From positions 1 to 64,000 of the forward strand of contig JAZDFD010000028.1 of NCBI GenBank assembly GCA_043808155.1: a DNA stretch of 64,000 nucleotides, given 5' to 3'. Source of the DNA: Candidatus Iainarchaeum sp. GTDB taxonomy: Archaea; Iainarchaeota; Iainarchaeia; Iainarchaeales; JAZDFD01. The notes below the pieces were generated by a model. The model worked only from the letters and a program-made list of their open reading frames with translations, was not told the DNA's origin and made no database searches. Positions 46,663-63,856 of this stretch are shown piece after piece. Numbering within the stretch: the first letter of the stretch is position 1; the number at the start of each line of letters is the position of its first letter. The translations under genes and the position numbers were made by a program.

Positions 46663-47456
46663 AAGCAGACGTATACTCAGTAGAGGGTAAAAAAGTAAAA
46701 GAAATTTCACTTCCTAAAGTATTTGATACTGAATATGATTCCGCATTAATCAAAAGATCTGTTTTAGCTTCACAGTCTGCAAGACTTCAGCCTAAGGGCG
46801 CATATCAAAACGCAGGAATGGATAATTCAGCTGTAATGAAAGGACGAAGAAGTTTCCCTGCAAGCGGAAGAAGTATTAATGTTGGACATGCAAGGCTTCC
46901 GCGTGTTAAAAGTCACAGAGCATTATTAGCAGGACACGTAGCCAGAGTCGCACAGGCACGCGGAGGTAAACGTGCACACCCTCCAAAAATTGAACAAAGG
47001 ATAGAGGAAAAAATAAACAAAAAAGAAAAAAAGAAAGCACTTGCATCAGCAATTGCAACAACTGTGAATTATGCATTAGTTTCAAAAAGACACAAAATAG
47101 CAGGAATTAAACTTCCAATTATTATGGAAGATAAATTCGCAGAACTGAAAAAAACCGCAGATGTTAAAAGTGTGTTAGAAAAATTGAATCTTTATACAGA
47201 TGTTGAAAATGCAAAAAACAAAAAACATGTACGCGCAGGCAAAGGAAAACTACGCGGAAGAAAATACAAAAGAAAGAAAAGTTTGCTTATTGTGACAGGC
47301 AAACAGGCACCTGTTTACAGAGCTGCAAGAAATTTAGAAGGTGTTGAAATTTGCACTGTAAGAAATTTAAATGCAGAATTGTTAGCACCAGGTGCAGAAG
47401 CAGGAAGATTGACAATATGGTTAGAAAGTGCAATTAGTGCATTGGAGACTAGGTGA
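46659..47456 (+). CDS. rpl4: Ribosomal protein uL4
   Basis: GGKRAHPPK, RAGKGKLRGR and LAPG..GRLTIW. Confidence 0.96.
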   Translation: MKADVYSVEGKKVKEISLPKVFDTEYDSALIKRSVLASQSARLQPKGAYQNAGMDNSAVMKGRRSFPASGRSINVGHARLPRVKSHRALLAGHVARVAQARGGKRAHPPKIEQRIEEKINKKEKKKALASAIATTVNYALVSKRHKIAGIKLPIIMEDKFAELKKTADVKSVLEKLNLYTDVENAKNKKHVRAGKGKLRGRKYKRKKSLLIVTGKQAPVYRAARNLEGVEICTVRNLNAELLAPGAEAGRLTIWLESAISALETR

Positions 47457-47460
47457 TTAA

Positions 47461-47883
47461 ATGGCTGCAGAAAAAAAAGTGAAAAAGGAAACAAAAGAAA
47501 AGAAAGCAGTCAAAGAAACAAAGAAAGCTGGAAAAACACCAGTAAAAGAAAAGAAAGACGATAAAAAAACTGAGAAAGTTAAACAGCTCTCAGCAAAAGA
47601 AACAACATCAAGTGAAGTTAAAGGTAAATTTTATTCAATTGTGAAACACCCTTTGATTTCAGAAAAAGCAGTTGGGATGATTGAAACACAAAACAAATTA
47701 ACTTTTGTTATTGAAAAAGGTTTTACTAAAAGTGAAGTTAAAAGGGCAGTAGAACAAATGTATAATGTAAAAGTTGACCGCGTCCAAGTAGTTAATGATA
47801 TGAAAGGAAGGAAAAAAGCAATTGTTAGAATAAACAAACAATACCGCGCAGATGAAATTGCAACAAAATTAGGGATATTGTAA
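47461..47883 (+). CDS. rpl23: Ribosomal protein uL23 with Lys/Glu-rich N-terminal extension
   Basis: HPLISEKA..NKLTF..KKAIV. Confidence 0.94.
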   Translation: MAAEKKVKKETKEKKAVKETKKAGKTPVKEKKDDKKTEKVKQLSAKETTSSEVKGKFYSIVKHPLISEKAVGMIETQNKLTFVIEKGFTKSEVKRAVEQMYNVKVDRVQVVNDMKGRKKAIVRINKQYRADEIATKLGIL

Positions 47884-47893
47884 GGTGTAAATT

Positions 47894-47971
47894 TTGAAAA
47901 ACCATAATTATTACTGTGGCATTGAAAATGCCACACATAAATCGGAGTACCCGTACGAAATCGGGTTGTGA
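47894..47971 (+). CDS. Bridging mini-ORF spanning element copy A
   Basis: TTG start after GGTG; MKNHNYYCGIENATHKSEYPYEIGL*; stops 4 nt before the rpl2 ATG. Confidence 0.45.
   Translation: MKNHNYYCGIENATHKSEYPYEIGL
47906..47966 (+). repeat. Intergenic hairpin element, copy A (rpl23/rpl2)
   Basis: AATTATTACT-GTGGCATT GAA AATGCCAC-ACATAAATCGGAGTACCCGTACGAAATCGGGT. Confidence 0.92.
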
Positions 47972-47975
47972 TAAC

Positions 47976-48707
47976 ATGCCTGGAAGACTAAAAACACAAA
48001 GAAGAGGTAGAGGGACTCCGAGATACCTGGCCTCAAATAAGGGGATTACATGTACATATATTAATTATACAGATGAACAAAAGAAAGATGTATTATTTGG
48101 CGAAGTTATTAGTTTGATAAAAACAACTGCAAGAAACAGTATTGTTGCAATTGAGAGATTTATAATAGACGGTAAGGAAACAGACTCACAAGTAATAGCT
48201 GCAGAAGGGTTAAGTGTTGGTCAGAAAATCCAATACGGGACTAATGCAGAACTTGCAATCGGAAATGTTTTACCACTTTCGAAGATTCCGGAGGGGTGCC
48301 CTATATTCAATATTGAAAAAGAAAGTGGGGATGGCGGAACATTTGTAAAAAGCAGCGGGATTTACGCAATATTAGTTACAAAGGACAAGAAAAATGCTTA
48401 CATTAAATTACCATCAGGAAAAACAAAACCATTCACCCTCTTGGCAAGAGCAACAATTGGATGTTCAGCATGCGGTGGAAGAACTGAAAAACCTTTCGTC
48501 AAAGCAGGAGCCAAATATTTTGCAATGAAAAGAAAAAGGAAAATGTGGCCAGTTGTAAGAGGTGTTGCAATGAACGCAGCATACCACCCACACGGTGGTG
48601 AACAGCACCATGTTGGTAAGAGTAAGTCTGTATCAAGACACGCTTCACCAGGAAGAAAGGTTGGTGCAATTGCTTCGAAGAGAACAGGAAGGAAAAAGAA
48701 AAACTAG
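47976..48707 (+). CDS. rpl2: Ribosomal protein uL2
   Basis: MPGRLKTQRRGRG and VRGVAMNA..HPHGG; the ORF-track extension from 47916 runs through the repeat element. Confidence 0.95.
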   Translation: MPGRLKTQRRGRGTPRYLASNKGITCTYINYTDEQKKDVLFGEVISLIKTTARNSIVAIERFIIDGKETDSQVIAAEGLSVGQKIQYGTNAELAIGNVLPLSKIPEGCPIFNIEKESGDGGTFVKSSGIYAILVTKDKKNAYIKLPSGKTKPFTLLARATIGCSACGGRTEKPFVKAGAKYFAMKRKRKMWPVVRGVAMNAAYHPHGGEQHHVGKSKSVSRHASPGRKVGAIASKRTGRKKKN

Positions 48708-48717
48708 GGTGTGTTAG

Positions 48718-49125
48718 ATGGCAAGAGTAGAAGAAACATGGCGCGGTAAAAAGATCGAAGATCTTAAATCAATGGATATTTCAGAATTTATGAAATTGAT
48801 AGATTCAAGAGCAAGAAGAAGTATGAAAAGAGGTTTTGATAAAAAGCTCATGAAACAGATTGACAATTATGCTGAAAAAATCAAAGATGGAAAATACCAA
48901 AAACCAATAAAAACACACCTGAGAGACACGATTGTGATTCCAAAAATGCTGGGACTTAAATTTGCAGTTTACAGAGGAAACAAGTTTGAGGATATTGACA
49001 TCGTACCAAATATGCTCGGGCATTTTTTGGGTGAATTTGCACTTACAAGAAAAAGACTTCAGCATGGAAAGGCAGGAATTGGTGCAACAAGATCAAGTAC
49101 TGCACTGAAGACAAAGAGAGTCTAA
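48718..49125 (+). CDS. rps19: Ribosomal protein uS19
   Basis: KTHLRD and MLGHFLGEFALTRK..HG..GIGATRSS. Confidence 0.96.
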   Translation: MARVEETWRGKKIEDLKSMDISEFMKLIDSRARRSMKRGFDKKLMKQIDNYAEKIKDGKYQKPIKTHLRDTIVIPKMLGLKFAVYRGNKFEDIDIVPNMLGHFLGEFALTRKRLQHGKAGIGATRSSTALKTKRV

Positions 49126-49133
49126 TGTGAAAA

Positions 49134-49262
49134 ATGATGATTAAGAAATATGAAAAAGCGGGTTATGACAGTGCCATCGCAGATGGCACGCGGAGCACCC
49201 CGTACGCAACCCTATTTCAACTCAGGGTTGAAATGGGCGCATTTCACAAAAAAGTGAAATAG
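49134..49262 (+). CDS. Bridging mini-ORF spanning element copy B
   Basis: MMIKKYEKAGYDSAIADGTRSTPYATLFQLRVEMGAFHKKVK* after GTGA. Confidence 0.4.
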   Translation: MMIKKYEKAGYDSAIADGTRSTPYATLFQLRVEMGAFHKKVK

Positions 49263-49265
49263 CGT
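49171..49265 (+). repeat. Composite hairpin element, copy B (rps19/rpl22)
   Basis: GTGCCATC GCA GATGGCAC, CGGAGCACCCCGTACG, and a double hairpin shared with 26430-26479. Confidence 0.85.
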
Positions 49266-49275
49266 CGAGTAGTGA

Positions 49276-49755
49276 TTGAAAATGGCTAAAAGAGAATATC
49301 AGAAAAAAGTGAAAAATGAAGCAAAGATTGCAAAAGCGATAGCTGCGAATAAGCCAATTTCAGTTAAATATGCGACAGAAATGTGCAGAGAAATTAAGGG
49401 AAGACCTGTAAACAAAGTTGAGAAATTTTTAAACAGAATAATGAACAAAGAGGATTTCTTACCTCTTAAAAGATATGTGAAGAAAGTAGCACACAGAAAA
49501 GGTGACTCAAAATCAGGAACTAAAACAGGAAAATATCCAATAAGAGTTGCAAATGCATTTCTTGAACTTATTCAAACTGCAAAAGCAAATGCAGATTTCA
49601 AAGGCATTGATACAGAATCGCTTTTGGTTTATCATGCATTTGCATCAACAGGTTTCAGAAGACACAGTGCACAGGCAAAAGGTCACATCGGCGGAAAGCG
49701 CAGAAGAAGTAAATCAACACATATTGAAATCATGCTTATAGAGGGAAAAAAATGA
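49276..49755 (+). CDS. rpl22: Ribosomal protein uL22
   Basis: GKYP..A..NA.. and THIEI; start probably at ATG 49282. Confidence 0.94.
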   Translation: MKMAKREYQKKVKNEAKIAKAIAANKPISVKYATEMCREIKGRPVNKVEKFLNRIMNKEDFLPLKRYVKKVAHRKGDSKSGTKTGKYPIRVANAFLELIQTAKANADFKGIDTESLLVYHAFASTGFRRHSAQAKGHIGGKRRRSKSTHIEIMLIEGKK

Positions 49756-50714
49756 TTGAAAGAACATTTATCAAACAGGCAATGAAAAAAATAGAGCTTG
49801 AGAAGTACATGAGAACCAATCTTGACAAAGCAGGGTTTACACACTTAGACATTGTGAAAACACCGTTGGTTACAAGAATCGTGCTTAATGTTACAAAACC
49901 AGGTCTGGCAATTGGAAAAGGCGGACAGACAATAAGACAACTTACAGAAGATATTGAAACAAAATTTGGAATTAACAATCCTCAGATAGAAATTAAGGAA
50001 ATTGAAAATCCAACATTAGATGCACAGGCAACAGTTGACAAAATGGTTGCATTACTTGAAAGAGGTTTCAGCTGGAGAAGTATTGCATTCAGAACTGTAA
50101 AAGACATTATGGCTGCAGGTGCGCAGGGTTGTGAACTTGTGCTTAGCGGAAAATTAACAGGAAAAGGCGGAAGAAAAAGAAAGCAGAGAATTGCAGAAGG
50201 ATATATGAAAAAAGTTGGACACCAAACAGAGTTAGTTGATTATGCAAAAAAATCCGCATACCCAAAAGCAGGTGCAATTGGAATTAAATTGAGAATAATT
50301 AAACCAGGAGTACAGTTCCCAGATAAAATAAAAATCAATGACATAATCACAAAGAAAAAAGCTCCTATCGTAGAAAAAGAAAATGCAGATGCTGGAAAAA
50401 CAGAAGTTACTGGTATCAAAGAAGAAGTGAAAATCGAAGTTAAAGAAAAAACTGAAAAGAAAGCAGAAGTTAAAGTTGAGAAGAAAGATAAGAAACCAGT
50501 AGCATATAAAAAAGATGCTAAAAAAGAAGTGACGAACGAAAAGAAAACAGATAAAAAGGAAGCAAAGAAATTTGATAAACCAAAAGAAGAAAAGAAAAAA
50601 TCAGATGACAAGAAAGAAACCAAAGTGAAAGAAGAAAAAGTTGACGACAAAAAAACTGAAAAGAAAGAAGTGAAAAAAGAAGATAAAAAATCAGATGAGA
50701 AAAAAGATAAGTGA
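49752..50714 (+). CDS. rps3: Ribosomal protein uS3 with about 115 aa Lys/Glu-rich C-terminal tail
   Basis: KPGLAIGKGG KH motif; GAQGCE..SGKL. Confidence 0.95.
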   Translation: MIERTFIKQAMKKIELEKYMRTNLDKAGFTHLDIVKTPLVTRIVLNVTKPGLAIGKGGQTIRQLTEDIETKFGINNPQIEIKEIENPTLDAQATVDKMVALLERGFSWRSIAFRTVKDIMAAGAQGCELVLSGKLTGKGGRKRKQRIAEGYMKKVGHQTELVDYAKKSAYPKAGAIGIKLRIIKPGVQFPDKIKINDIITKKKAPIVEKENADAGKTEVTGIKEEVKIEVKEKTEKKAEVKVEKKDKKPVAYKKDAKKEVTNEKKTDKKEAKKFDKPKEEKKKSDDKKETKVKEEKVDDKKTEKKEVKKEDKKSDEKKDK

Positions 50715-50719
50715 TATTT

Positions 50720-50806
50720 ATGAATACGGGAAAAAATTATTACCGCAGTATCGAACGAAGTGAAGATACTGCACATAAATCGGAGCACCCGTACGAAATC
50801 GGGTAG
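50720..50806 (+). CDS. Bridging mini-ORF spanning element copy C
   Basis: MNTGKNYYRSIERSEDTAHKSEHPYEIG*. Confidence 0.45.
   Translation: MNTGKNYYRSIERSEDTAHKSEHPYEIG
50735..50804 (+). repeat. Intergenic hairpin element, copy C (rps3/rpl29)
   Basis: AATTATTACC-GCAGTATC GAACGAAGTGAA GATACTGC-ACATAAATCGGAGCACCCGTACGAAATCGGGT. Confidence 0.92.
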
Positions 50807-50814
50807 TGATAGTT

Positions 50815-51024
50815 ATGACAAATAAAGAAGCTAAATCATTCAGGGAGCTTCCAAAAGAAGAACTGAATGAAAAATTAGTGGATTTGCAAACAGAGCTTGC
50901 AAAAGAAAGAGCAACAGTTGCGTCTGGTACGCGACCTGAAAATCCTGGGAACATCAGGAAGCTCAGAAGAAATATTGCAAGACTTAAAACAATAATTAAT
51001 GAAAAAAATGAGGTGACTAAGTAG
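50815..51024 (+). CDS. rpl29: Ribosomal protein uL29
   Basis: ENPGNIRKLRRNIARLKT. Confidence 0.94.
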   Translation: MTNKEAKSFRELPKEELNEKLVDLQTELAKERATVASGTRPENPGNIRKLRRNIARLKTIINEKNEVTK

Positions 51025-51026
51025 CA

Positions 51027-51329
51027 ATGGAAGATATTTGTCCTAAATGCGGTCTCCCGCAAAACCTTTGTGTTTGCCAGGAGATTGCGAAGGAAAGCCA
51101 AAAAATAAAAATAAGAACTGACAAAAGAAGATTTGGTAAATTAGTGACAATTGTTTCGGGTTTGGATGAATCAAAAAGTGCAGATCAATTATGCAAGGAA
51201 CTAAAAAGAAAACTTGCGTGTGGTGGCACTGTGAGAAACTCGGAAATTTTATTGCAAGGAAACCATAGTAAAAAAGTGAAAGCCTTTCTGCTAAAGCAGG
51301 GATATAAAGAGGAATTAATTGATGATTAA
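51027..51329 (+). CDS. Translation initiation factor aIF1/SUI1
   Basis: CPKCGLP..LCVC, LACGGT and LQGNH. Confidence 0.95.
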   Translation: MEDICPKCGLPQNLCVCQEIAKESQKIKIRTDKRRFGKLVTIVSGLDESKSADQLCKELKRKLACGGTVRNSEILLQGNHSKKVKAFLLKQGYKEELIDD

Positions 51330-51633
51330 GGGAAAACATTATGAAATAACACAAAAAAATCTGCCTGCACATGAGCTTATCGGGCTTAATGCAAAGGTTG
51401 TGAAAAGTGTTGATTCAAAAAAAACCGGAGTTAAGGGAAAAGTTGTAAATGAAACAAAAAATATTCTGGAATTGGAGAACAACAGCGTTATAAAAAAAAT
51501 CCCGAAAAAAGAAGTTGTGTTTGAATTTGAAATTGGAAATGAAAAAATTATAATTGACGGAAAAATGTTAAATGAAAAACCAGAGAATCGTGTAAAGGAG
51601 TTTTGGAGGAAATACCATGGAAAACTGCAATGA
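51319..51633 (+). CDS. rnp1: RNase P protein component 1 (Rpp29)
   Basis: HELIGL..G..GKVVNETKN..IPK..PENR. Confidence 0.92.
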   Translation: MMIKGKHYEITQKNLPAHELIGLNAKVVKSVDSKKTGVKGKVVNETKNILELENNSVIKKIPKKEVVFEFEIGNEKIIIDGKMLNEKPENRVKEFWRKYHGKLQ

Positions 51634-51952
51634 CCCAAAGTGCCCAAAATGCGGCAATATCAAAGTAAGGGGCAATATTTTCACAGGTATTGTAACATCT
51701 GCAAAAGCAGATAAGACAGTCACTGTTGAAAGACAGTTAGTTAAAAAAGTTAGAAAATATGAAAGATACAAAAAAATAAGATCCAAAATCCATGCACACA
51801 ATTCAAAATGTGTTTCAGCAAAAGAAGGCGACACAGTAAGAATTGGAGAAACAAGAAAATTAAGCAAAACAAAAAGTTTTGTTGTGATGGACATTCTTAA
51901 CAAAGGGTCAGATGAAAAGCCAAAAACAGATAAGAAAAAGGTGAAAAAATGA
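51617..51952 (+). CDS. rps17: Ribosomal protein uS17
   Basis: CNDPKCP, KYERY and ETRKLSKTK. Confidence 0.95.
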   Translation: MENCNDPKCPKCGNIKVRGNIFTGIVTSAKADKTVTVERQLVKKVRKYERYKKIRSKIHAHNSKCVSAKEGDTVRIGETRKLSKTKSFVVMDILNKGSDEKPKTDKKKVKK

Positions 51953-52347
51953 AAGCAATCAGCGCCAGAAGGACCATGGGTTTAACACAAAAAAGCAGAT
52001 GCGTTTGCGCAGACAACTCAGGCGCAAAAGAGGTTGAAATCATCACAGTTTTTGGTCACAAATCAAGAAAAAAGATGAGTCCAAAAGGCGGAATCGCAGA
52101 TATGGTTAATGTTGTTGTAAAAAAAGGAAAACCCGAAATCAGAAAAAAAGTTGAGCGTGCAGTTATTGTAAGAGTGAAACAAGAATACAGAAGAGCAAAT
52201 GGCATGAGAGTAAAATTCGAAGACAATGCAGTTGTTCTTGTGGATAATAAGGGAATTCCTAAAGGAAGTGAAATTAAAGGTGCAGTTGCAAAAGAAGCTG
52301 CAGAAAGATGGGTAAAAATCGGGGGCATTGCCTCAGTAGTAGTATAG
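51949..52347 (+). CDS. rpl14: Ribosomal protein uL14
   Basis: ADNSGAK, FEDNAVV and KGSEIKG. Confidence 0.96.
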   Translation: MKAISARRTMGLTQKSRCVCADNSGAKEVEIITVFGHKSRKKMSPKGGIADMVNVVVKKGKPEIRKKVERAVIVRVKQEYRRANGMRVKFEDNAVVLVDNKGIPKGSEIKGAVAKEAAERWVKIGGIASVVV

Positions 52348-52356
52348 GTGGATTAA

Positions 52357-52833
52357 ATGAAAAGCTCAAAACCAAGAAAACAAAGAAAAGCGCTTTACAC
52401 AAGAACTGTTCATAAAAAACAGAATGACTTAGCAGGGCATCTGAGTAAAGAACTCAGAAAAGAGCTGAAACAAAGATCAATTCCTCTGAGAAAAGAAGAC
52501 AAAGTTAAGATTATGAGAGGGTCACACAAGGCAAGAGAAGGAAAAATAATTGATGTTAATTACACCAAGGGATTTGTGTATATTGAAAAAGTTATCAGAA
52601 AAAAGGCAGACGGAACTGAAGTGCCGGTGCCGGTAAGAGCGTCAAATGTAATGGTTGTTGGCCTTTACAGAGATGATGACAGAAGAATTAAAAGAAAAAC
52701 TCTGAAAAAAGTCACAAAATCCGAAAAAAAAGACAAGAAAGAAAAAGCTTATGACAAAAAAGCATATACAAAAGTGAAAGAAGAGAAATCTGAAAAAAAG
52801 GAAGATAATAAAGCTAAGGCGAAGGTGAAATAA
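52357..52833 (+). CDS. rpl24: Ribosomal protein uL24 with charged C-terminal tail
   Basis: SSKPRKQRK, LSKELR and KOW motif. Confidence 0.95.
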   Translation: MKSSKPRKQRKALYTRTVHKKQNDLAGHLSKELRKELKQRSIPLRKEDKVKIMRGSHKAREGKIIDVNYTKGFVYIEKVIRKKADGTEVPVPVRASNVMVVGLYRDDDRRIKRKTLKKVTKSEKKDKKEKAYDKKAYTKVKEEKSEKKEDNKAKAKVK

Positions 52834-53552
52834 TGGCTAAAAAAGGAAGCAAAAAATCAGAAAAAAGAATAAGCACTGATAAAGTCAGAAACATAAAGAA
52901 AAAAGAAAAAACATGGACAATAAAGGCAGAGCCAGGACCTCACAAAAAATCAACTTCCGTACCTTTAGGTTTTATTTTGAGAGACCTTCTTGAAGTAGCA
53001 CAAAATTTGAGAGAAGTTAAACAGATACTTAACAGTAAAAGCGTCAAAGTAGACGGAACTTTAAGAACAAGTTACAGATTCCCTGTAGGTCTTTTCGATG
53101 TTGTTTCATTCAACAAAGATAAAAAAGGCTACAGATTAGTTTATGATTTTAAAGGCAGATTAATGGTCAAGGAAATTGAAGGCAAAGAACTTAACAAAAA
53201 AATATGTAAAATTACTAATAAAAAAACAGGGAAAACAGGAATTACTGAACTTGTAACAAATGATGGAAGAATATTCAAAGAAAAAAATGCGAAATACAAA
53301 GTTGGTGATTCATTAGAAATTGAACTTCCCGGCCAGAAAATTTCAAAGTCACTTGAATTCGCAAAAGGGAACACAGCATATGTTTCAGGCGGAACGCACA
53401 TTTCAGCAATGGGAAAAATAACAGAAATTGTTGCAGGAACAATGAAAAGAAAAACACTTGTTACATTGAAGACTGCAGACAAAGAAGAGTTCAGTACAAC
53501 TGAAAATAACATAATTGTTATTGGTAAAGAGAAAGGGGAAATAGATATTTAA
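52833..53552 (+). CDS. rps4e: Ribosomal protein eS4
   Basis: PGPH, VKVDG..FPVGLFDV and GGTH. Confidence 0.95.
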   Translation: MAKKGSKKSEKRISTDKVRNIKKKEKTWTIKAEPGPHKKSTSVPLGFILRDLLEVAQNLREVKQILNSKSVKVDGTLRTSYRFPVGLFDVVSFNKDKKGYRLVYDFKGRLMVKEIEGKELNKKICKITNKKTGKTGITELVTNDGRIFKEKNAKYKVGDSLEIELPGQKISKSLEFAKGNTAYVSGGTHISAMGKITEIVAGTMKRKTLVTLKTADKEEFSTTENNIIVIGKEKGEIDI

Positions 53553-53559
53553 AATTAGA

Positions 53560-54081
53560 GTGAGTTTTATGACAGAAAATACAATGCGCACAATCATTGT
53601 CGAGAAAGTTACTGTAAATATGGGTGTAGGCCAAGCTGGCGACGAACTCAAAAAATCAAAAACAGTAATTGAGACAATTACAGGTGCAAAAGCAATTGAA
53701 ACAAAGTGTAAAGTTAAACAACCAAAATGGGACATCAGACCAGGTTTACCTATTGGAATTAAAGTTACACTTAGAAAAAAACAGGCAACTGACTTTTTGA
53801 AACGTGCGATTAATGCAAAGCAAAACATAATCAAAAAAAAGAGTTTTGATATGCAGGGTAACTTCGGATTTGGAATCAAAGAACATATTGATCTTCCAGG
53901 AGTTAAATATGACCCTAAATTAGGAATACGGGGTCTTGATGTTTTAGTAACACTTAAAAGAAACGGACAGCGTGTTAAGAAAAGAAAAATTGCAAAAACA
54001 AAAATTGGCAAAAAGCACATAATAACAAAAAAAGACGCAATGCAATTCATGAAAGAACAATTTGGAGTTGAAGTTGAATGA
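53560..54081 (+). CDS. rpl5: Ribosomal protein uL5
   Basis: IGIKVTLR and [20 protein letters not shown]. Confidence 0.96.
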
Positions 54082-54248
54082 GTTCCAAAACAAAAGGTCC
54101 AAAAAAAGATCTAAAAAAAGAAAAACAAGCAAGAGTATGCACAAATTGCGGGACTAGAAATGCAATCATAAGAAAATACAATCTCAATGTCTGCAGAAGA
54201 TGCTTTAAAGAATTAGCAGAAAAATTAGGCTTTAGGAAATATGGTTAA
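54078..54248 (+). CDS. rps14: Ribosomal protein uS14 (56 aa, not in the ORF track)
   Basis: CTNCG...[25 protein letters not shown]; lies between L5 and S8. Confidence 0.94.
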
Positions 54249-54255
54249 ATGAGGG

Positions 54256-54657
54256 GTGGTAAAAATGACATTAGTAGATCCAATAGCAAACGCAATGATA
54301 AGCATTAAGAATAGCGACATTGCCTCAAAAAAAGAATGTATATTTCGACCTGCATCAAAACTTCTGGGAAAAATCTTAGAAGTTATGCAAAAAAAAGGAT
54401 ACATCGGAATTTATGAATTCATAGATGACGGACAAGAAGGTATTTACAAAATAGAACTTAAAGGAAAAATTAATGATTGTAAAGCAATAAAGCCAAGATA
54501 TGCAGTTAAGAAAGATGGATTTGAAAAATTTGAAAAAAGATATTTACCTTCAAAGGATGTTGGAATTTTGATTGTTTCAACACCAGAGGGTGTATTAACA
54601 CATAAAGAAGCAAAGGAATCCAATGTCGGGGGCAGATTATTAGCTTATATTTATTAA
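54256..54657 (+). CDS. rps8: Ribosomal protein uS8
   Basis: DPIANA, IKPRY and STPEG..GGRLLAY. Confidence 0.96.
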
Positions 54658-54668
54658 TGGTGTTTTGA

Positions 54669-55211
54669 ATGAAAACAGGATTTGTGGAAGAAATAATTGA
54701 AGTGCCGGAAGGCATTGAATGTGAAATTCAGAAAAAGACAGTTACTGTTAAGAAAGGAGATAAAACAATCACAAAAACATTTGATATGATTGGAGTAGTT
54801 TTCAAAAAAGAAGGGAACAGAGTTCAGATTTCCACAAAATATCCTAAGAAAAAAACTGCAGCAATGCTGAAAACAGCAGCGGCTCATTTGAAAAATATGA
54901 TTAACGGACTTCAGGAAGAATATGTGTATAAGCTCGCAATTATTTATTCACACTTTCCAATGACTGTTACAGTTAAAGATGGATTTTTAGAAATAAACAA
55001 CTTTGCAGGTGAGAAAAAAACCAGAAAAGCAAAGATTATGGCTAATACAAAAGTTGAAGTTAAGGGGAAAGAAGTTACAGTTAGATCACATAACAAGGAA
55101 AATGCAGGTCAGACTACGGCAAATATTGAATCTGCAACAAAAGTAAAAGGAAAAGATAAAAGAATTTTTCAAGATGGCATTTGGATTACTGAAAAACCAA
55201 AGAAAAGATAA
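54669..55211 (+). CDS. rpl6: Ribosomal protein uL6
   Basis: YSHFPM, NFAGEK, GQTTANIE and DKRIFQDGI. Confidence 0.96.
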   Translation: MKTGFVEEIIEVPEGIECEIQKKTVTVKKGDKTITKTFDMIGVVFKKEGNRVQISTKYPKKKTAAMLKTAAAHLKNMINGLQEEYVYKLAIIYSHFPMTVTVKDGFLEINNFAGEKKTRKAKIMANTKVEVKGKEVTVRSHNKENAGQTTANIESATKVKGKDKRIFQDGIWITEKPKKR

Positions 55212-55774
55212 TGGGTGAAAACATGGCAACTGCAGAAAAACACAAAACTGATAAAAAAGAAGTGACGAAAGCAAAGAAAACATCAGTTACAACAAAAAAA
55301 GCAGATACTAAAACAAAAACTGCAGAAAAAAAAGAAACAACTGCAAAGAAAAAAACTGCAGAAAAAAAACCAGGTGCTAAAAAAACAATTAAAAAAAGCA
55401 GTGCTGCAAAAAAAGCACAGGCATTAATTAAAAAGAAAGTTAAGAAACCAAGTTTCAGAGGAAGATTTGGTTCGAGAAAATTCAGAAGAAAAAGTAACGC
55501 AAAATGGGACAAATGGAGAAAACCGCGTGGTATTGATATCAAAGACACCCAGGAAAACGGAACTAGTCCAAGAACAGGTTATGGTACTTGCAAACTCATA
55601 AAGACTATGCACCCTTCAGGATATTATGAAAAAATGATATTTAATCCAAGAGATTTGGACGGTATTGATGCAGAAAGATTTGCATTGAGAATTTCAGCAG
55701 GTGTAGGAAAGAAAAAAAGGTCTGAAATTGCAAAAAAAGCAAGGGAAATGGGACTACGTATTTTAAACAGGTGA
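55211..55774 (+). CDS. rpl32e: Ribosomal protein eL32 with Lys/Thr/Ala-rich N-terminal extension
   Basis: WRKPRGID, GYG and HPSG. Confidence 0.94.
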   Translation: MGENMATAEKHKTDKKEVTKAKKTSVTTKKADTKTKTAEKKETTAKKKTAEKKPGAKKTIKKSSAAKKAQALIKKKVKKPSFRGRFGSRKFRRKSNAKWDKWRKPRGIDIKDTQENGTSPRTGYGTCKLIKTMHPSGYYEKMIFNPRDLDGIDAERFALRISAGVGKKKRSEIAKKAREMGLRILNR

Positions 55775-55778
55775 AAAA

Positions 55779-55856
55779 ATGATTTACAAAAAAAATTATT
55801 ACCGTGGGATTGTAAATCCCACACATAAATCGGAGCACCCGTACGAAATCGGGTAG
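55779..55856 (+). CDS. Bridging mini-ORF spanning element copy D
   Basis: MIYKKNYYRGIVNPTHKSEHPYEIG* after AGGTGA. Confidence 0.45.
   Translation: MIYKKNYYRGIVNPTHKSEHPYEIG
55794..55854 (+). repeat. Intergenic hairpin element, copy D (rpl32e/rpl19e)
   Basis: AATTATTACC-GTGGGATT GTA AATCCCAC-ACATAAATCGGAGCACCCGTACGAAATCGGGT. Confidence 0.92.
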
Positions 55857-55865
55857 GTGAAATGA

Positions 55866-56306
55866 ATGAAACTAGACCAAGTAAAGAGATTAGCCGCAGA
55901 TGTTCTTAACGTGGGCGTAACCAGAATATGGATTGACCCTAAAGAAGTTGGGAATGTTGCAGAAGTTATTACAAAAGATGATGTAAGAGCTTTAGTTGCA
56001 GACGGAGTAATCAAGAAAAGAAGAGTGCAGGCACAAAGCCACGGCCATGCACGTTTATTAGCTGAAAAGAAAAGTAAAGGTCTGAAAAAAGGAAAAGGTA
56101 AAAGAAAAGGAAAAGTTAATGCAAGAACACATAGAAAGAAAAAGTGGATTAAAACAGTCCGTGCACAAAGAGATGAACTTAAAAAACTTAAAACAGAAAA
56201 CCCTGAAGCAGTTGCAGAAGCAAATTACCATTCTATTTACAGAAGAATAAAAGGCGGATATTACAAAGGTAGAAAATACGTGAGAAGCGCAGTACTTAAG
56301 AAGTGA
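55866..56306 (+). CDS. rpl19e: Ribosomal protein eL19
   Basis: KRLAADVL.VG..RIWIDP, W...R.QR and Y...KGG. Confidence 0.95.
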   Translation: MKLDQVKRLAADVLNVGVTRIWIDPKEVGNVAEVITKDDVRALVADGVIKKRRVQAQSHGHARLLAEKKSKGLKKGKGKRKGKVNARTHRKKKWIKTVRAQRDELKKLKTENPEAVAEANYHSIYRRIKGGYYKGRKYVRSAVLKK

Positions 56307-56311
56307 TGATT

Positions 56312-56416
56312 ATGAATTTAGAAGAAAATTATTACCGTGGTTTTGAGCAAAACGAAAAACCACACATAACTCGGAGCACCCGTACGAAATCGGGTAGTGC
56401 AATACTTAAGAAGTGA
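56312..56416 (+). CDS. Bridging mini-ORF spanning element copy E
   Basis: MNLEENYYRGFEQNEKPHITRSTRTKSGSAILKK*; ends in a duplicate of the rpl19e C-terminus; an in-frame ATG also overlaps the rpl19e stop at 56306. Confidence 0.45.
   Translation: MNLEENYYRGFEQNEKPHITRSTRTKSGSAILKK
56327..56395 (+). repeat. Intergenic hairpin element, copy E (rpl19e/rpl18)
   Basis: AATTATTACC-GTGGTTTT GAGCAAAACGA AAAACCAC-ACATAACTCGGAGCACCCGTACGAAATCGGGT; flanked by a 22 bp near-duplicate. Confidence 0.92.
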
Positions 56417-56422
56417 TAAATT

Positions 56423-57010
56423 ATGGCAAACAAAGCAACATACGATGTTCAATTCAAAAGAAGAAGCAATGGTAAAACCAATTACAAAAAAAGACTGGCA
56501 TTAGTTAAATCAGGAAAGCCAAGATTAGTTGTAAGGAAAACCAACAGCAGAATAATTGTACAGATTATTGCATATGAGAGACCCGGTGACAAGGTTATTG
56601 TAAGTGCAACATCAGTACAGCTTAAAAAATATGGCTGGGCAGGAAACAAAAATATACCTTCAGCATATTTAACAGGATTACTTTGCGGAATGCGCGCAAA
56701 AGAAGCAAAAATTAATCAAGCAGTTTTAGATATTGGATTTAGAACACCTGTTCACATGTCAGTTCCATTCGCAGCACTAAAAGGTGCACTGGATGCAGGG
56801 CTTGACATTCCATTTGATGAAACCGCACTTCCAAAAGAAGACAGAATCACAGGAAAACATATTGAAAACTATGCAAATTCATTGGATAGCGAAGAAATTA
56901 ACAAAAAGTTTTCAAAAATGATTAAAAATAATGTAAATCCAAAAGAAATTACAAAAATATTCCAAAATACTAAAGAGAAAATTGTGGGAAACAGTAATGT
57001 AAAAGAGTGA
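56423..57010 (+). CDS. rpl18: Ribosomal protein uL18
   Basis: GKTNYKKRL, RLVVRKTN, SAYLTG and LKGALDAG. Confidence 0.96.
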   Translation: MANKATYDVQFKRRSNGKTNYKKRLALVKSGKPRLVVRKTNSRIIVQIIAYERPGDKVIVSATSVQLKKYGWAGNKNIPSAYLTGLLCGMRAKEAKINQAVLDIGFRTPVHMSVPFAALKGALDAGLDIPFDETALPKEDRITGKHIENYANSLDSEEINKKFSKMIKNNVNPKEITKIFQNTKEKIVGNSNVKE

Positions 57011-57014
57011 TGAT

Positions 57015-57707
57015 ATGGCAGTTAGAAGAAGACAAACCGCAGAAGAGAGAGAATCCAAAAGGCTGAAAGATAAAGAGCAGGAACTGATTAAATGGGTGGC
57101 TAAAACAAAATTAGGCAAAATGGTACAGAATGAAGAAATCAAATCATTAGACGAAGTCTTTGCTAAAAATATGAAAATACTTGAACCGGAAATTGTTGAT
57201 ACACTTTTGAGCCTTGAAGAAGAAATGGTTGACTTTAAGAAAACTTCCAGAGTTGTAAGAGCAGGAAGAAAATTTTCATTCCGTGTTACAATGCTTGTTG
57301 GTGATAAAAACAAGTATGTGGGATACGGAACTGCAAAAGATGTTGAAAGATTCCCTGCAATGAGAAAGGCAGTCAGAAAAGCAAAACTTAATCTTGTAGA
57401 AGTTAAGAAAGGCTGCGGAAGCTGGGAATGCACCTGCGGTGCCGAGCATTCAGTACCTTTTGAAGTTGAAGGGAAATGTGCATCAGTACATGTGCGATTA
57501 ATACCTGCACCAAAAGGAGTTGGATTAGTTGCAGGTGACAATATTAAAAAAGTGCTTGAAATGGCAGGTCTGAAAGATGTATGGACAAAAACATCAGGCA
57601 ACACAAGAACAAAATTGAATTTTGTTATTGCTGCAGTTGACGCACTTTCAAAAACAGGGAAAATGAGAATGTCAGATGACATTGCAAAAAAGTTTGAACA
57701 CAAGTGA
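57015..57707 (+). CDS. rps5: Ribosomal protein uS5
   Basis: W..KTKLG, GCGSWEC and PAPKGVGLV. Confidence 0.96.
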   Translation: MAVRRRQTAEERESKRLKDKEQELIKWVAKTKLGKMVQNEEIKSLDEVFAKNMKILEPEIVDTLLSLEEEMVDFKKTSRVVRAGRKFSFRVTMLVGDKNKYVGYGTAKDVERFPAMRKAVRKAKLNLVEVKKGCGSWECTCGAEHSVPFEVEGKCASVHVRLIPAPKGVGLVAGDNIKKVLEMAGLKDVWTKTSGNTRTKLNFVIAAVDALSKTGKMRMSDDIAKKFEHK

Positions 57708-58174
57708 TGATTATGTATGTGGTTATAAGAATAAGAGGAAATGTCAGAGTAAGAGATAAATTAGAGGATACTCTTGGAATGCTAAGACTTAACAGAGTTA
57801 ATCATGCAGTTCTTGTTCCTGAGGGAAAACAATACAAAAACATGGTGCGAAAAGTTGAGCCATTTATAACATACGGTGAAATCAATGTAGAAATGCTTGA
57901 AAAGATGCTTGCAAAACGCGGTAAAACAGAAACAGGAAAGAAATTAACAAGTGAATTTTTGAAGGAAATTAAATTTGCATCAATGAAGGACTTAGCAGAC
58001 GCAGTTATTTCAGGAAAAACTACACTGAAAAAACTCGGAATTAAACCTGTGTTCAGATTACACCCTCCAAAAAAAGGTCACATGAGACAGGGGATAAAGA
58101 AAAATTATAGTTTAGGCGGAGCTGCAGGTTACAGAGCCTCAGATATAAATGTTTTAGTTAAGAAAATGATTTAG
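57704..58174 (+). CDS. rpl30: Ribosomal protein uL30
   Basis: IRIRG, ITYGEI and FRLHPPKKG. Confidence 0.95.
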   Translation: MMIMYVVIRIRGNVRVRDKLEDTLGMLRLNRVNHAVLVPEGKQYKNMVRKVEPFITYGEINVEMLEKMLAKRGKTETGKKLTSEFLKEIKFASMKDLADAVISGKTTLKKLGIKPVFRLHPPKKGHMRQGIKKNYSLGGAAGYRASDINVLVKKMI

Positions 58175-58182
58175 GTGTCTTT

Positions 58183-58692
58183 ATGGTTGTAAGAAAACGT
58201 AGAAAGAAAAATACTCTCAGAGGAAACAGAGTTCACGGAAAAGGTGATACCAAAAACAAGAGAGGTGCAGGTTGCAGAGGCGGCAGAGGACGCGCTGGTT
58301 CACACAAACATAAATTCACAAAATACTGGAAAACATTTGGGAAATTTGGAAAATTGAAAGTTAAGAAAACACTTATTGGAATTAACCTTTCAGATCTTGT
58401 TGAGAAACTTCCAAAACTTGTTTTGACAAAGAAAGTTGAACAGGAAAAAGGAGCATACATTATTGACGGAAAGAAATTGAAATTTGACAAGATTTTGGGC
58501 AGAGGTAAACTCAATGAACAATTAATAGTAAAAAATCTTGAAGTAACTAAAAAGGCTGCAGAGATAATTAAAAAGGCAGGCGGAAAAATAGAGAAATTAA
58601 AAGAAGAAATAACAGACAAAGACGTTGAAGAACAAGATGAAGAATTAGCAGACGATGACTTTGAAGAAACATCAGACATGGACGAGAAGTGA
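58183..58692 (+). CDS. rpl15: Ribosomal protein uL15 with acidic tail
   Basis: RGAGCRGGRGRAG, KILGRG and IKKAGG. Confidence 0.95.
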   Translation: MVVRKRRKKNTLRGNRVHGKGDTKNKRGAGCRGGRGRAGSHKHKFTKYWKTFGKFGKLKVKKTLIGINLSDLVEKLPKLVLTKKVEQEKGAYIIDGKKLKFDKILGRGKLNEQLIVKNLEVTKKAAEIIKKAGGKIEKLKEEITDKDVEEQDEELADDDFEETSDMDEK

Positions 58693-58696
58693 TTTT

Positions 58697-60073
58697 GTGG
58701 GAATACTGGATATTTTTGAACCAATTTACAATGCGTTGCCTGAAATAAAGCAGCCTGTGAAGGAAGTTCCACTTAAGAAAAAACTTATCTGGACAGGTCT
58801 TGTTTTACTTTTGTTTTATATAATGGGAAATATTACACTTATTGGTTTAGCAGGTGTGAGAGGAGATGAACTTACAAATCTCCAGATTATTCTTGCAAGT
58901 AATATCGGAACATTAATTACTGCAGGAATCAGCCCTATTGTTTTGTCATCAATTATTTTGCAGTTACTTGTTGGTGGAAAAATCATTGACATTGATTTGT
59001 CACAGCCAAAAGATAAAGCAAGATTTCAGGGTCTGCAAAAATTATTTGCAGTTGCACTTTGTTTATTTGAAGGTGTGATTTACGTTGCATCAGGTATGCT
59101 TGAACCATCTGAAGGGATGTTTTTAATTGTGGTTGCGCAGGTTGCACTTGGTTCAATAATTTTACTTTACTTAGATGAATTAGTTTCAAAATACGGTATT
59201 GGTTCAGGAGTTGGATTGTTTATTGCAGGTGGAGTTACAGGCAGCTTCTTGTGGTTGGTTTTGAGACCTCCGCTTATTGCAGGAGATCCTGGCGGGGCAA
59301 TTTCACAATTCATTGGAAGTCTTGCAACAGGAGTTAATTTTGTTATTTTAATTCCAATCTTGATTGCAATTGCAATTTTCTTAATAATTGTATTTGCAGA
59401 AGGAATGCATGTGAATATTCCGATAACAATGGGCAGAAAAGGAACTGGCGGAAGATTCCCTGTTAAGCTGCTTTATGTTTCAAATATTCCTGTTATTTTA
59501 GCAGTTGCATTATTTGCAAATTTCCAGTGGTGGTCATTAATGAGTGCAGAACTTGATCTTCCACTGATTGGTAAAGGAATCGGATGGGTAATGGGTGGTT
59601 TAGCTTATTATACAACAGCACCATATGGTTTGTTCGCAGATATAATTGACAGAGTTGGTGCAGAAGGCATGCAGGGATTGTTCTTCATGTCAGGTGATTT
59701 ATTCCATGCACTCATTTACATGGTTATTTTGATTGCATCATGTATTATTTTCGGTAAATTTTGGGTTGAAATGGGCGGTCAGGGTGCAGAAGCAGTTTCA
59801 AAGCAGTTAAGCGGAAGCGGAATGTACATCCCGGGATTCAGAAGAGACAGCAGAATCATAAGGCAGGTTCTTGACAGATATATTCCACCGATTGTGATTA
59901 TTGGTTCAATATTTGTTGCATTATTAGCAGGCTTCGGAGATATGACACTGAATAATTTGTCATCAGGAACAGGAATTTTGCTGACAGTTGGTATTGTTTA
60001 CAGACTTTATGAAGAGCTTGCTAAGGAGCAGCTAATGGAAACAAATCCCTTATTCAAGAGGTTTTTTGGATGA
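58697..60073 (+). CDS. secY: Preprotein translocase SecY/Sec61alpha
   Basis: GISPIV, SKYGIGSG, YVSNIPVIL, IPGFR and GTGILLTV; GTG start at 58697 after GTGA. Confidence 0.96.
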   Translation: MGILDIFEPIYNALPEIKQPVKEVPLKKKLIWTGLVLLLFYIMGNITLIGLAGVRGDELTNLQIILASNIGTLITAGISPIVLSSIILQLLVGGKIIDIDLSQPKDKARFQGLQKLFAVALCLFEGVIYVASGMLEPSEGMFLIVVAQVALGSIILLYLDELVSKYGIGSGVGLFIAGGVTGSFLWLVLRPPLIAGDPGGAISQFIGSLATGVNFVILIPILIAIAIFLIIVFAEGMHVNIPITMGRKGTGGRFPVKLLYVSNIPVILAVALFANFQWWSLMSAELDLPLIGKGIGWVMGGLAYYTTAPYGLFADIIDRVGAEGMQGLFFMSGDLFHALIYMVILIASCIIFGKFWVEMGGQGAEAVSKQLSGSGMYIPGFRRDSRIIRQVLDRYIPPIVIIGSIFVALLAGFGDMTLNNLSSGTGILLTVGIVYRLYEELAKEQLMETNPLFKRFFG

Positions 60074-60243
60074 AATACGTAAGTGATGGGAAAAACAGTG
60101 CTACCGAAAGACACACAAGCTCGAGGATTGAGCCTCGCGGGCGTTCGGCTATGGACAATATTAATAAAACTATGGTAACCCTAAATAATACGCAAATATA
60201 CCGATTTTTAACCAAATTTGGGATTTTTGGGAGTGTGTTTTAA
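60070..60243 (+). CDS. 57 aa bridging ORF spanning element copy F
   Basis: ATG overlaps the secY stop (ATGA); TAA overlaps the next start (TAATG); open throughout. Confidence 0.45.
   Translation: MKYVSDGKNSATERHTSSRIEPRGRSAMDNINKTMVTLNNTQIYRFLTKFGIFGSVF
60096..60156 (+). repeat. Hairpin module, copy F (after secY)
   Basis: CAAGCTCGAGGATTGAGCCTCGCGGGCGTTCGGC (60116-60149) is identical to 26590-26623. Confidence 0.88.
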
Positions 60244-60725
60244 TGGTGTTTTTTGATGTTATGCTAGAGATTGCCTTGGTTGCAATGTGCTTAGCAGTAG
60301 TATCGCAGATAGTAAGGAGAAAGTTTGTTGATCCAAAGAAAATGAAGGAACAGCAAAAAGTTATGAAAGAAAAACAGGCAAAAATTAAGGAGTTAGTGAG
60401 CAAAGAAGACGCGAAATCAAAAGCAGAACTGCAAAGAATCCAGACAGAAATGCTTGAAGTAACAAACGAAATGATGCAGGGTTCAATGAGAATGATGATG
60501 TTTACATTTCCTGTTTACATTGTTGCATTTTGGGGTCTTGGGTATTTGTATAGTACTGCAGTAATTGATCTTCCGATTCAGATTCCCTGGTTTGGAGAAA
60601 ATTGGTCAATAAAATTTTATGAGCAAACAAACTGGATTGGATGGTATGTTTTAATTTCGCTTATAACCGGACTGGCATTAGGATTTATATTTAATGCATT
60701 GGAAAAAATAAAAGGTGAACAATAA
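60243..60725 (+). CDS. DUF106 / EMC3-TMCO1 (Oxa1 superfamily) membrane protein
   Basis: TM, coiled coil, TM, and WIGWY motif; conserved position after secY. Confidence 0.88.
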   Translation: MVFFDVMLEIALVAMCLAVVSQIVRRKFVDPKKMKEQQKVMKEKQAKIKELVSKEDAKSKAELQRIQTEMLEVTNEMMQGSMRMMMFTFPVYIVAFWGLGYLYSTAVIDLPIQIPWFGENWSIKFYEQTNWIGWYVLISLITGLALGFIFNALEKIKGEQ

Positions 60726-63740: not shown

Positions 63741-63856
63741 GCAGGAGTACCAAAGTGGTTAAATGGGCGGGACTTAAGATGTTATTATGAAGTCATTAAA
63801 ATCATGGGAAATCCCGTGGCTTAGTGCCTCCGCAGGTTCGAATCCTGCCTCCTGCA
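63741..63856 (+). tRNA. tRNA-Leu(TAA) with 32 nt intron at position 37/38 (63779-63810)
   Basis: GCAGGAG/CTCCTGC acceptor stem; CGGGA-CTTAAG^A-TCCCG anticodon arm; long variable arm; GGTTCGAATCC. Confidence 0.93.

Follow-up and report, generated by a model that had tools for sequence, protein, structure and literature searches.

How do gene junctions in an otherwise tightly packed ribosomal-protein operon come to be widened by structured inserts, each of which is spanned by a short open reading frame (ORF) running from just past the stop codon of one gene to just ahead of the start codon of the next? This question is raised by a 64,000-nt stretch of contig JAZDFD010000028.1 of Candidatus Iainarchaeum sp. 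(the whole stretch is called the window here, and its contig C28), a DPANN archaeon (Iainarchaeum-like) whose genome is represented by 35 contigs totalling 1.08 Mb, 88% complete and with a G+C content of 34%. The archaeal ribosomal-protein superoperon occupies 45.6-61 kb of the window, with the genes L3, L4, L23, L2, S19, L22, S3 and L29, and further on L32e, L19e, L18, S5, L30, L15 and SecY. Our analysis makes it likely that small mobile elements, structured and non-coding, have recently inserted at the widened junctions, and that the inserts at five of them (A, C, D and E, along with a degenerate B) are members of a single family, R1. The short bridging ORFs are mostly a mechanical by-product of R1 insertion.

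The six ORFs (mini-ORFs) all lie on the forward strand. Mini-ORF A (47894-47971, 25 aa) begins with TTG and ends with a TGA inside the ribosome-binding site (RBS) of L2; mini-ORFs B (49134-49262, 42 aa), D (55779-55856, 25 aa) and F (60070-60243, 57 aa) begin with ATG; and mini-ORFs C (50711-50806) and E (56303-56416), which an earlier examination of the letters by themselves (the sequence-only reading) had begun at ATGs at 50720 and 56312, extend in the same frames to upstream GTGs. Apart from these two extensions the ORFs are where that reading had placed them: their starts lie 5-11 nt past the upstream stop codon, or overlap it in the case of F, and their stops 0-20 nt ahead of the downstream ATG. 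Its observation that A, C and D have the peptide motif NYY..HKSE(H/Y)PYEIG in common is borne out, and so is its account of mini-ORF E, which enters the insert in the same frame as A, C and D and then changes frame because the first hairpin of its insert measures 27 nt, rather than 19 or 28 nt, yet stays open and ends at a copied L19e stop codon. The junctions are likewise truly widened, the gaps in the window being 92 nt at L23/L2 and 156 nt at S19/L22, as against 3-44 and 8-17 nt in all seven species-level relatives compared, where gaps were taken as the distances between tblastn alignment boundaries.

Family R1 at the widened junctions

Inserts A, C, D and E have in common a unit of approximately 70 nt (repeat family D1) and belong to a two-hairpin repeat, R1, of about 70-130 nt and with around 42 copies in the 1.08-Mb genome. 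Read 5' to 3', R1 consists of an A-rich extension of variable length, a conserved ATATTAC-like box (ATTATTAC), hairpin 1, the stretch CACATAAAT, the motif CGGAGC or CGGAGT, and hairpin 2. The stem of hairpin 1, which is 19-28 nt long in A, C, D and E, is hypervariable yet paired, and its loop carries the motif TTGA..GAAA. Hairpin 2 is GC-rich (ACCCG-loop-CGGGT) and marks the sharp 3' end of the element, and between the two hairpins CACATA is followed by CGG. A 24-mer drawn from the 3' part of R1 is found at 11 places in the genome with at most three mismatches, whereas its reversed control is found at none.

All the inserts of the operon are oriented along the forward strand. The core of insert A at L23/L2 (47907-47966, 87.1 bits against a covariance model built from 16 copies of R1) shows ATTATTAC, a 19-nt hairpin, CACATAAAT, CGGAGT and hairpin 2 in order, and its covariance match spans 47895-47972; it is a member of family D1. 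At S3/L29, insert C (50724-50804, 87.8 bits) has a 12-nt A-rich 5' extension before a core with a 28-nt hairpin 1; insert D at L32e/L19e (55783-55854, 86.5 bits) likewise has a 12-nt A-rich 5' extension ahead of the R1 core, and insert E at L19e/L18 (56315-56395, 88.6 bits) a 13-nt extension and a 27-nt hairpin 1. Insert B at S19/L22 (49163-49270) is a diverged R1 of an ATGAC subtype (26.5 bits, E=0.005), with a twin-hairpin module of about 56 nt nested inside the loop of hairpin 2 and a predicted fold of -47.1 kcal/mol (z=-4.3). The sequence-only reading had treated all six inserts as one class of element. This stands for A, C, D, E and the diverged B, but not for F: the spacer between SecY and an EMC3-like gene (60074-60242, forward strand; the downstream gene matches PF01956) contains, at 60095-60156, a different repeat with a hairpin and a pseudoknot-like stretch. 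This repeat, D8, has copies at 16866, 26587 and 60113, and F-type motifs are found elsewhere directly 5' of the genes for tRNA-Asp, tRNA-Arg(gcg) and tRNA-Val(tac). When the 57-aa ORF of F was used as a query, no match was obtained at E<=0.01 in 40 relatives.

The R1 model yields 45 matches at E<=1 in this genome. Elsewhere in the same order it matches 15 of 40 genomes at E<=0.001 and 21 of 150 at E<=1e-5, usually with one to three matches each. At the latter threshold this genome has 28 matches and the next highest genome eight; since the usual number elsewhere is one to three, R1 has expanded here. The seven species-level relatives, in which the L23/L2 and S19/L22 junctions are tight, gave no R1 match at E<=0.1.

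The hairpins are upheld by covariation. Among the 16 copies, compensatory changes are seen at eight of the 12 predicted pairs. Across 40 copies from 12 genomes, in an alignment that was fitted to the R1 model and thereby favours structure, 97.8% of cells are paired as compared to 65.6% in shuffles and at most 51% in slid controls, and 139 cells are changed on both sides as compared to 36.6 in shuffles, with none of 500 shuffles reaching 139. As to which strand folds, eight G-T and four A-C pairs were counted, numbers too small to tell. At the gathering thresholds of Rfam the entire window contains just two tRNAs, with no match at the inserts, and a search of 47000-61000 at E<=10 returned weak unrelated matches away from the inserts and none at them. 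Literature searches, in which supplementary files were left aside, found no description of the R1 element.

Several more specific structural interpretations were considered and dropped. Readings of hairpin 1 as a K-turn, an H/ACA or a C/D motif fail as its GA motifs adjoin covarying Watson-Crick positions, and the ACA and D-box positions are unconserved on inspection by eye. A closing stem ATTACC/GGTGAT that would hide the RBS is predicted in C only among the five junctions folded, and is impossible at the copies that flank tRNA genes. A 3-bp pseudoknot between CGN and an NCG in the loop of hairpin 2 was traced by eye: its third pair, for which some subfamilies show covariation, is a G-A mismatch in the most common subfamily.

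The twin-hairpin module seen in insert B is not confined to it. Of approximately 55 nt and with the pattern ATTTCxx..xxGAAAT occurring twice, it is nested within R1 copies at differing positions, either in one of the two hairpin loops or in the stretch that separates CGGAGC from hairpin 2. Its sites are ~49208-49264 in the window, ~100-160 on contig C1, ~53240-53300 on C14, ~16430-16500 on C13 and ~18430-18490 on C35. It resembles a mobile element within a mobile element, and no flanking duplication was seen around it.

Insert A also bears on the annotation of its neighbor. Its third frame is open and in frame with L2, such that the L2 ORF can be extended to a GTG at 47916 (47916-48707), and automatic annotation could therefore produce a falsely long L2 starting inside the insert.

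Insertion, target duplication and the probable origin of the mini-ORFs

The most direct evidence for insertion comes from relatives in which the sites are empty. In all four metagenome contigs compared (L026-L029, with L19e identities of 80-92%), the D and E sites lack the element and present a single copy of the stretch that is duplicated in the window. The empty D site in L026 reads AACAGGTGAAAAAATGAAACT; the window has at this place the 14 nt AGGTGAAAAAATGA, then 72 inserted bases, and then a slightly diverged second copy. Insert D itself is present in one contig of metagenome run X1. A further empty E site is provided by a contig of run X2, which joins position 56313 to 56423 with only 16 other letters between them. 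At E, both copies of the duplicated stretch carry a lineage-specific shortening of the junction relative to L026, and the duplication is thus younger than the shortening. Also in run X2, a contig of a related groundwater organism, aligned at window positions 48718 and 55855, joins an R1-like 3' end to the start of S19, which suggests an independent insertion at the L2/S19 junction in a relative.

The duplications at C, D and E, all on the forward strand, explain where the mini-ORFs begin and end. At C, the upstream copy AGTGATATTTATGA (50710-50723) comprises the S3 stop codon, an RBS and the start of mini-ORF C, and the downstream copy AGTGATAGTTATGA (50805-50818) the working RBS and ATG of L29 (ATG at 50815); the two form a 14-nt direct repeat with one mismatch and a score of 11, where the 99th percentile of 1000 random controls is 10. 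At D, the upstream copy AGGTGAAAAAATGA (55769-55782) holds the L32e stop, an RBS and the start of mini-ORF D, and the slightly diverged downstream copy (55855-55869) the ATG of L19e at 55866. At E, the upstream copy (56286-56314) extends from the last L19e codons through the stop and RBS to the ATG of mini-ORF E, and the downstream copy (56396-56425) consists of non-functional L19e C-terminal codons and a stop, at which mini-ORF E ends, followed by the working RBS of L18 and its ATG at 56423. This is a 22-nt repeat with two mismatches; followed further by eye, it reaches about 30 nt at the cost of an additional mismatch and a single 1-nt indel.

Across the genome the target duplications range from 7 to 33 nt and are thus variable within one family and one genome. 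Flanking direct repeats with scores of at least 11 are found at 10 of 42 copies (against a 99th percentile of 10 and a highest score of 14 in the 1000 random controls). The downstream repeat of most of them starts at the 3' end of R1, i.e. 1-4 nt into a search window that starts 8 nt before the end of the match; the exceptions are the copies at C1:15020 and C23:50815, in which the best repeat match lies far from the end of the element. Where the downstream copy begins at the element end, a stretch of 6-39 nt, lacking conservation and mostly A-rich, lies between the upstream repeat and the conserved box. R1 accordingly has a sharp 3' end and a ragged 5' end. The duplicated targets include the last 20 nt of a tRNA-Arg gene and the last 18 nt of a C/D-box-like small RNA (sRNA) gene, with the boxes identified by eye. 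In relatives, duplications of approximately 17, 29, 17, 19, 18 and 9 nt were recognized by eye, along with arrays of the form repeat-element-repeat-element-repeat. An apparent 7-nt duplication at C1:17923 was discarded as chance, the upstream stretch being the normal C-terminus of DNA ligase.

These features lead to a simple proposal for the origin of the mini-ORFs. An R1 that lands just after the start codon of a gene within an operon would include the RBS and ATG of that gene in its duplication; the downstream copy would keep serving the gene, while the upstream copy, now a few nucleotides past the previous stop codon, would start a short ORF leading into R1. Consistent with this, at C, D and E, and also at C31:6393 and at C11:908 (CarA/CarB), the mini-ORF begins from the upstream copy of the duplicated signals (RBS and start codon) that belong to the downstream gene. 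Since insertion copies 14-30 nt of target including the downstream RBS and start codon, the mini-ORFs begin right after the upstream stop. The GTGA/GGTG RBS, or ATGA overlap, and the start codon close to the upstream stop, which had been viewed as designed features, are hence accounted for by target duplication without selection, as the empty D and E sites of relatives show directly. The rest of the ORF follows from the composition of R1: two of its three entry frames are free of stops, and the third meets the TGA of the loop motif TTGA, because of which an ORF will in most cases continue up to where the element ends on its 3' side. Its stop codon then has one of three sources: in C and D, the final T of the element and the AG of the duplicated RBS make up a TAG; in A, a TGA is present within the RBS; and in E, as in the copy at S15/S3Ae on contig C7, the upstream gene's stop has been duplicated.

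In two instances R1 lies in frame at the 5' end of a conserved gene, namely at C24:19582-19667 (L059:382-467), in a gene for a PorA-like (pyruvate:ferredoxin oxidoreductase alpha-like) protein, and at C4:15966-16052, in one for an NAD-dependent epimerase-like protein. In the PorA-like ORF (L059:382-1599) R1 codes for residues 1 to ~28, the POR_N domain starts at residue 42 and there is no alternative start codon between R1 and the conserved domain; the domain of the epimerase-like ORF begins at residue 31. Hence, as judged from the reading frame, the PorA-like protein probably carries about 27 R1-encoded residues as an extension of its N-terminus.

Certain observations weigh against interpreting R1 as a mobile element. 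For A, B and C no empty site in a close relative was available, as it was for D and E, and insertion at these three junctions is argued from their membership of the family and from the contrast with distant relatives. The duplication flanking insert A is weak at best (score 6), and, altogether, 32 of the 42 copies, including insert A and the copy at C1:17923 after DNA ligase, have no duplication above the control level. No match to RVT_1, Y1_Tnp, Cas1 or DDE_Tnp_1 was recovered in this 88%-complete genome, and it contains only two TnpB-like genes and two tyrosine-recombinase matches, which are not adjacent to R1 copies. Further, R1 persists across the whole order at low copy number, a distribution also compatible with a functional RNA gene of which copies are made now and then.

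Probable translation across the inserts, and the boundaries of RNA genes

Translation very probably runs across the inserts. It is another matter whether the open frame is itself selected, as the sequence-only reading had supposed: insertions would persist only if ribosomes cross the structured insert, with translation melting hairpin 2 near the downstream RBS and avoiding polarity. This possibility, which could add to the insertion model rather than replace it, we regard as tentative and somewhat less probable than its absence. In dinucleotide shuffles a bridging ORF appeared in 275, 139, 360, 598, 121 and 65 of 2000 for junctions A to F respectively (3-30% per junction); six out of six is far above this naive null, but A, C, D and E, as copies of a single sequence, do not count as independent trials. 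Of the 12 sense copies in the genome that crude ORF calls place between co-directional genes, eight have a separate bridging ORF, two share the frame of the gene downstream (PorA-like in one case and epimerase-like in the other, both in keeping with such selection), and two (C1:17923, after DNA ligase, and C11:18747) have none. An ORF from just past the upstream stop thus crosses the whole core in 10 of the 12, where 6.3 are expected (P(>=10)=0.0195), and the product of the probabilities for the ten open copies, given the open frames per copy, is 8e-4. By eye, the ten enter R1 as TAT TAC C in six copies and as ATT ACC in four, the third entry frame being used in none, and independent bridging ORFs are seen in two other genomes, L046 and L041. 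The pattern of orientation is more striking: crude ORF calls place 12 sense copies and a single antisense copy in gaps between co-directional protein ORFs without a tRNA. Survival in essential operons may hence be filtered for the sense orientation, in which there is no T-run terminator, and for an open frame; a T-run on the antisense strand is expected to terminate archaeal transcription.

Against such selection, operonic copies, a class assigned from these crude calls, are not spanned significantly more often than others (10/12 as against 18/29, Fisher p=0.28), which leaves the expectation of preferential bridging within operons without support, and the antisense strand is spanned in 22 of 41 copies. 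In R1 cores the antisense strand is almost as stop-poor as the sense strand (1.54 of three frames open versus 1.71, with 1.00 in mononucleotide shuffles), and openness is therefore largely a matter of composition. Predicted folds sequester the RBS in C alone among the five junctions. The idea that selection keeps ribosomes crossing the insert thus retains its frame-conditioned excess, but not the operonic contrast, and the starts are mechanical; a filtering of insertions by orientation and frame is plausible, not demonstrated.

The sequence-only reading had offered, as an alternative, that the mini-ORFs are regulatory leader peptides, or, in a related form, the inserts could be autoregulatory RNA sites bound by ribosomal proteins, in either case tuning stoichiometry. 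The position inside a ribosomal-protein operon and the HKSEHPYEIG tail common to three of the six ORFs would speak for this. However, R1 also occurs at CarA/CarB, DNA ligase/AlaX, ferredoxin/PorA and the epimerase gene, beside tRNA genes and inside tRNA introns, and in both orientations. The peptide varies with the frame between copies, two frames being used, and is partly coded by a stem with compensatory changes. Orthologous loci in relatives with 80-92% L19e identity lack the D and E inserts and have no such ORF, and the ORF of F is without a match in the 40 relatives. We consequently consider this explanation extremely improbable.

A third alternative is that R1 is, or has turned into, a functional module rather than a parasite only: either a small stable RNA gene or a portable element that would act as a promoter in the sense direction, with the ATATTA box as TATA and CACATA as initiator, and as a terminator in the antisense direction through its hairpins and T-run. 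The family, whose structure is strongly conserved, is maintained in 21 of the 150 related genomes. At nine of 41 R1 copies, a convergent tRNA gene has its 3' end just 1-2 nt away (ARAGORN detected four of these tRNAs, while the other five came from the Rfam tRNA model with 40-76 bits), and there the antisense strand ends in a T-run. Four copies lie in tRNA introns or intron-like insertions. Sister-family elements in the sense orientation adjoin the 5' end in about 14 of 32 tRNA genes, as counted by eye. The distance from ATATTA to CACATA (~24 nt in the short form) would fit the spacing of archaeal TATA boxes and transcription starts. Yet no fixed spacing can hold when hairpin 1 varies from 19 to more than 80 nt, close relatives manage well without inserts D and E, and no Rfam family matches. 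Such a function is therefore in our view unlikely, though by no means as remote as a leader peptide. Besides tRNA genes, the 3' end of R1 adjoins Shine-Dalgarno (SD)-like motifs, which lie within 2 nt of it in nine of 41 copies as against a background of 1.6%; thus, the sharp 3' end faces tRNA boundaries and RBS sites. This placement may stem from a preference for such targets or from the survival of copies where the site is safe.

Small structured repeats flank about half of the tRNA genes, with examples in the window at 16866-17075 and 63741-63857. The sense elements among them, which belong to related families with a hairpin and a pseudoknot-like stretch, end 0-3 nt before the tRNA 5' end, and the antisense elements start 1-2 nt past the discriminator base, the sharp 3' end pointing toward the tRNA on both sides. 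Behind the tRNA-Asp gene (16891-16964), the segment 16965-17075 contains two tandem, differing copies of a sister family, each with a hairpin GTGC..GCAC and an apparent H-type pseudoknot, both stems of which show covariation from one copy to the other. After each of them the last 11 or 8 nt of the tRNA are repeated, which indicates two separate insertions at the same point.

Comparable situations are seen at other RNA genes. C/D-box-like sRNA genes (ATGATGA ... CTGA, recognized by eye) have R1 at their 3' end at C2 ~2400-2570 and in genomes G015 (L042), G018 (L039) and G032 (L050), with the D box duplicated; the present genome (G000) and G015, which belong to different families, have R1 at the same point of apparently the same sRNA gene. 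Several tRNA genes with insertions or introns of 50-100 nt or longer were missed by ARAGORN and found with the Rfam tRNA model at 38.8-54.7 bits (C26:73759-73929, C20:3957-4107, C26:56259-56428 and C6:27735-27856), and in the one at C26:73759, which has a Glu-like anticodon loop by eye, an antisense R1 directly follows the anticodon loop.

L23, S3 and L32e have long lysine/glutamate-rich extensions (47461-47640, 50300-50714 and 55211-55480; that at the S3 C-terminus is of ~100 residues), which are the source of many of the low-complexity DNA repeats listed in the window. The direct-repeat block at 12125-12920, with spacings of 321, 147 and 189 nt and 75-94% identity (families D2, D4 and D5), is unrelated to R1.

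Known elements and a possible route of spread

Small mobile repeats that are translated or carry ORFs have precedents in bacteria, and the statement of the sequence-only reading that no such system had been described was too strong. The Rickettsia palindromic elements (RPEs) are translated small mobile repeats, and the enterobacterial RU-1/2/3 elements are small mobile repeats carrying ORFs (PMC2759123, PMC2229807). R1 resembles both in being short, non-coding and structured, in occurring in small genomes, between and inside genes, and in inserting in frame without destroying the host protein. The stop-free, in-frame insertions in the conserved PorA-like and epimerase-like genes are of this RPE-like kind. 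R1 differs in being archaeal, in its long variable duplications, sharp 3' and ragged 5' ends, in its strong preference for tRNA and sRNA ends and for RBSs and starts, and in that no terminal inverted repeats were found in it.

Among archaeal elements, the nearest parallel is a set of MITE-like (miniature inverted-repeat transposable element-like) C/D box sRNA-like elements of Pyrobaculum calidifontis, with 15 copies for which a transposon-like spread has been proposed, conserved flanking inverted repeats, C/D boxes and an average distance of 322 nt from genes (PMC6009581). They have in common with R1 that they form an archaeal multi-copy family of small-RNA-like repeats, but R1 is without C/D boxes or inverted repeats and sits within operons and at the ends of RNA genes. 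A C/D box sRNA was rejected as an identity for R1 itself on the grounds that it lacks a D box, that its 'guide' positions are paired and covary, and that a C-like box occurs only in the ATGATGA subtype.

R1 does not conform to a MITE either. Its 5' box (ATATTAC..) and 3' end (..CGGGT) are not reverse complements, its duplications are of 7-33 nt rather than of a fixed short length, and a search of the 88%-complete genome for a cognate transposase gave no match to DDE_Tnp_1, other DDE families not being searched. The 5' flanks of three copies do resemble the complement of hairpin 2, but this stems from neighboring elements. Insertion sequences of the IS1634/IS1549 type, with a DDE transposase, generate variable direct repeats of tens of bases and are autonomous, longer than 1 kb and bounded by inverted repeats. 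R1 is like the IS1634-type elements in its long target duplications of variable length and unlike them in being ~80 nt long, in having no DDE_Tnp_1 gene that could be found, and in having two dissimilar ends. PATEs, which are derived from IS200/IS605, and REP/RAYT elements insert at a fixed tetra- or pentanucleotide without target duplication. Like these, R1 has hairpins near its ends and may be read in single-stranded form, and its box before hairpin 1 contains TTAC; in contrast to them it duplicates its target, Y1_Tnp is without a match in the genome, and the two TnpB-like genes are not beside R1 copies. The duplications and the missing Y1_Tnp match led us to set aside an origin from IS200/IS605.

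The signature of R1 is unlike that of any prokaryotic element class to which it was matched, and we place it among small non-autonomous mobile repeats. In function it is nearest to the RPEs and RU elements, and in signature to IS1634-type elements and to retro-copies like those of short interspersed nuclear elements (SINEs). SINEs and processed retro-copies arise by target-primed reverse transcription, and yeast Ty3 and Dictyostelium TRE target tRNA genes. R1 shares with SINEs the long variable duplications, the precise 3' and variable 5' end, the small structured RNA-like unit and the tRNA-adjacent safe haven, and the combination of the first two is the signature of target-primed RNA copying; in this respect, R1 resembles a retroposon. 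It differs in lacking poly(A) or a 3' repeat, and in that no RVT_1 match was found in this genome, though a reverse transcriptase (RT) encoded on unassembled DNA, or by a host or virus, is possible. We know of no such retroposon in prokaryotes. Nor do RTs co-occur with R1 among the 40 relatives, being present in three of the 15 genomes with R1 and four of the 25 without it, and two pattern scans of viral contigs recovered no R1 stretches.

R1 and its sister families could conceivably be archaeal SINE-like mobile elements copied from RNA, an idea we consider unlikely but worth spelling out, with a small structured RNA as template and the 3' end set by the base of hairpin 2 or by the pseudoknot. 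The template RNA would perhaps have been first released from pre-tRNA 5' leaders by RNase P, and would be copied into DNA at nicks or free ends by stable-RNA gene boundaries and Shine-Dalgarno sites, generating the long variable duplications. The polymerase might come from the cell itself or act in trans, from the host of the DPANN cell or from a virus. Under such a mechanism, the duplication of the RBS and start codon would amount to a built-in, harmless entry into essential operons.

As a mobile element, R1 presents a case of a reduced, 1-Mb symbiont-type archaeal genome tolerating active mobile DNA in its most essential operon, in which the downstream gene is not cut off because insertion regenerates its translation signals. 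The same process is a simple mechanical source for 'bridging' mini-ORFs that would otherwise be mistaken for regulatory peptides or annotation noise. There are also consequences for the annotation of DPANN genomes: about half of the tRNA genes here are element-flanked, and ARAGORN missed several intron-bearing tRNAs that lie beside or around elements. If the elements do prove to be RNA-templated, they would extend the retroposition of small RNAs to the archaea.

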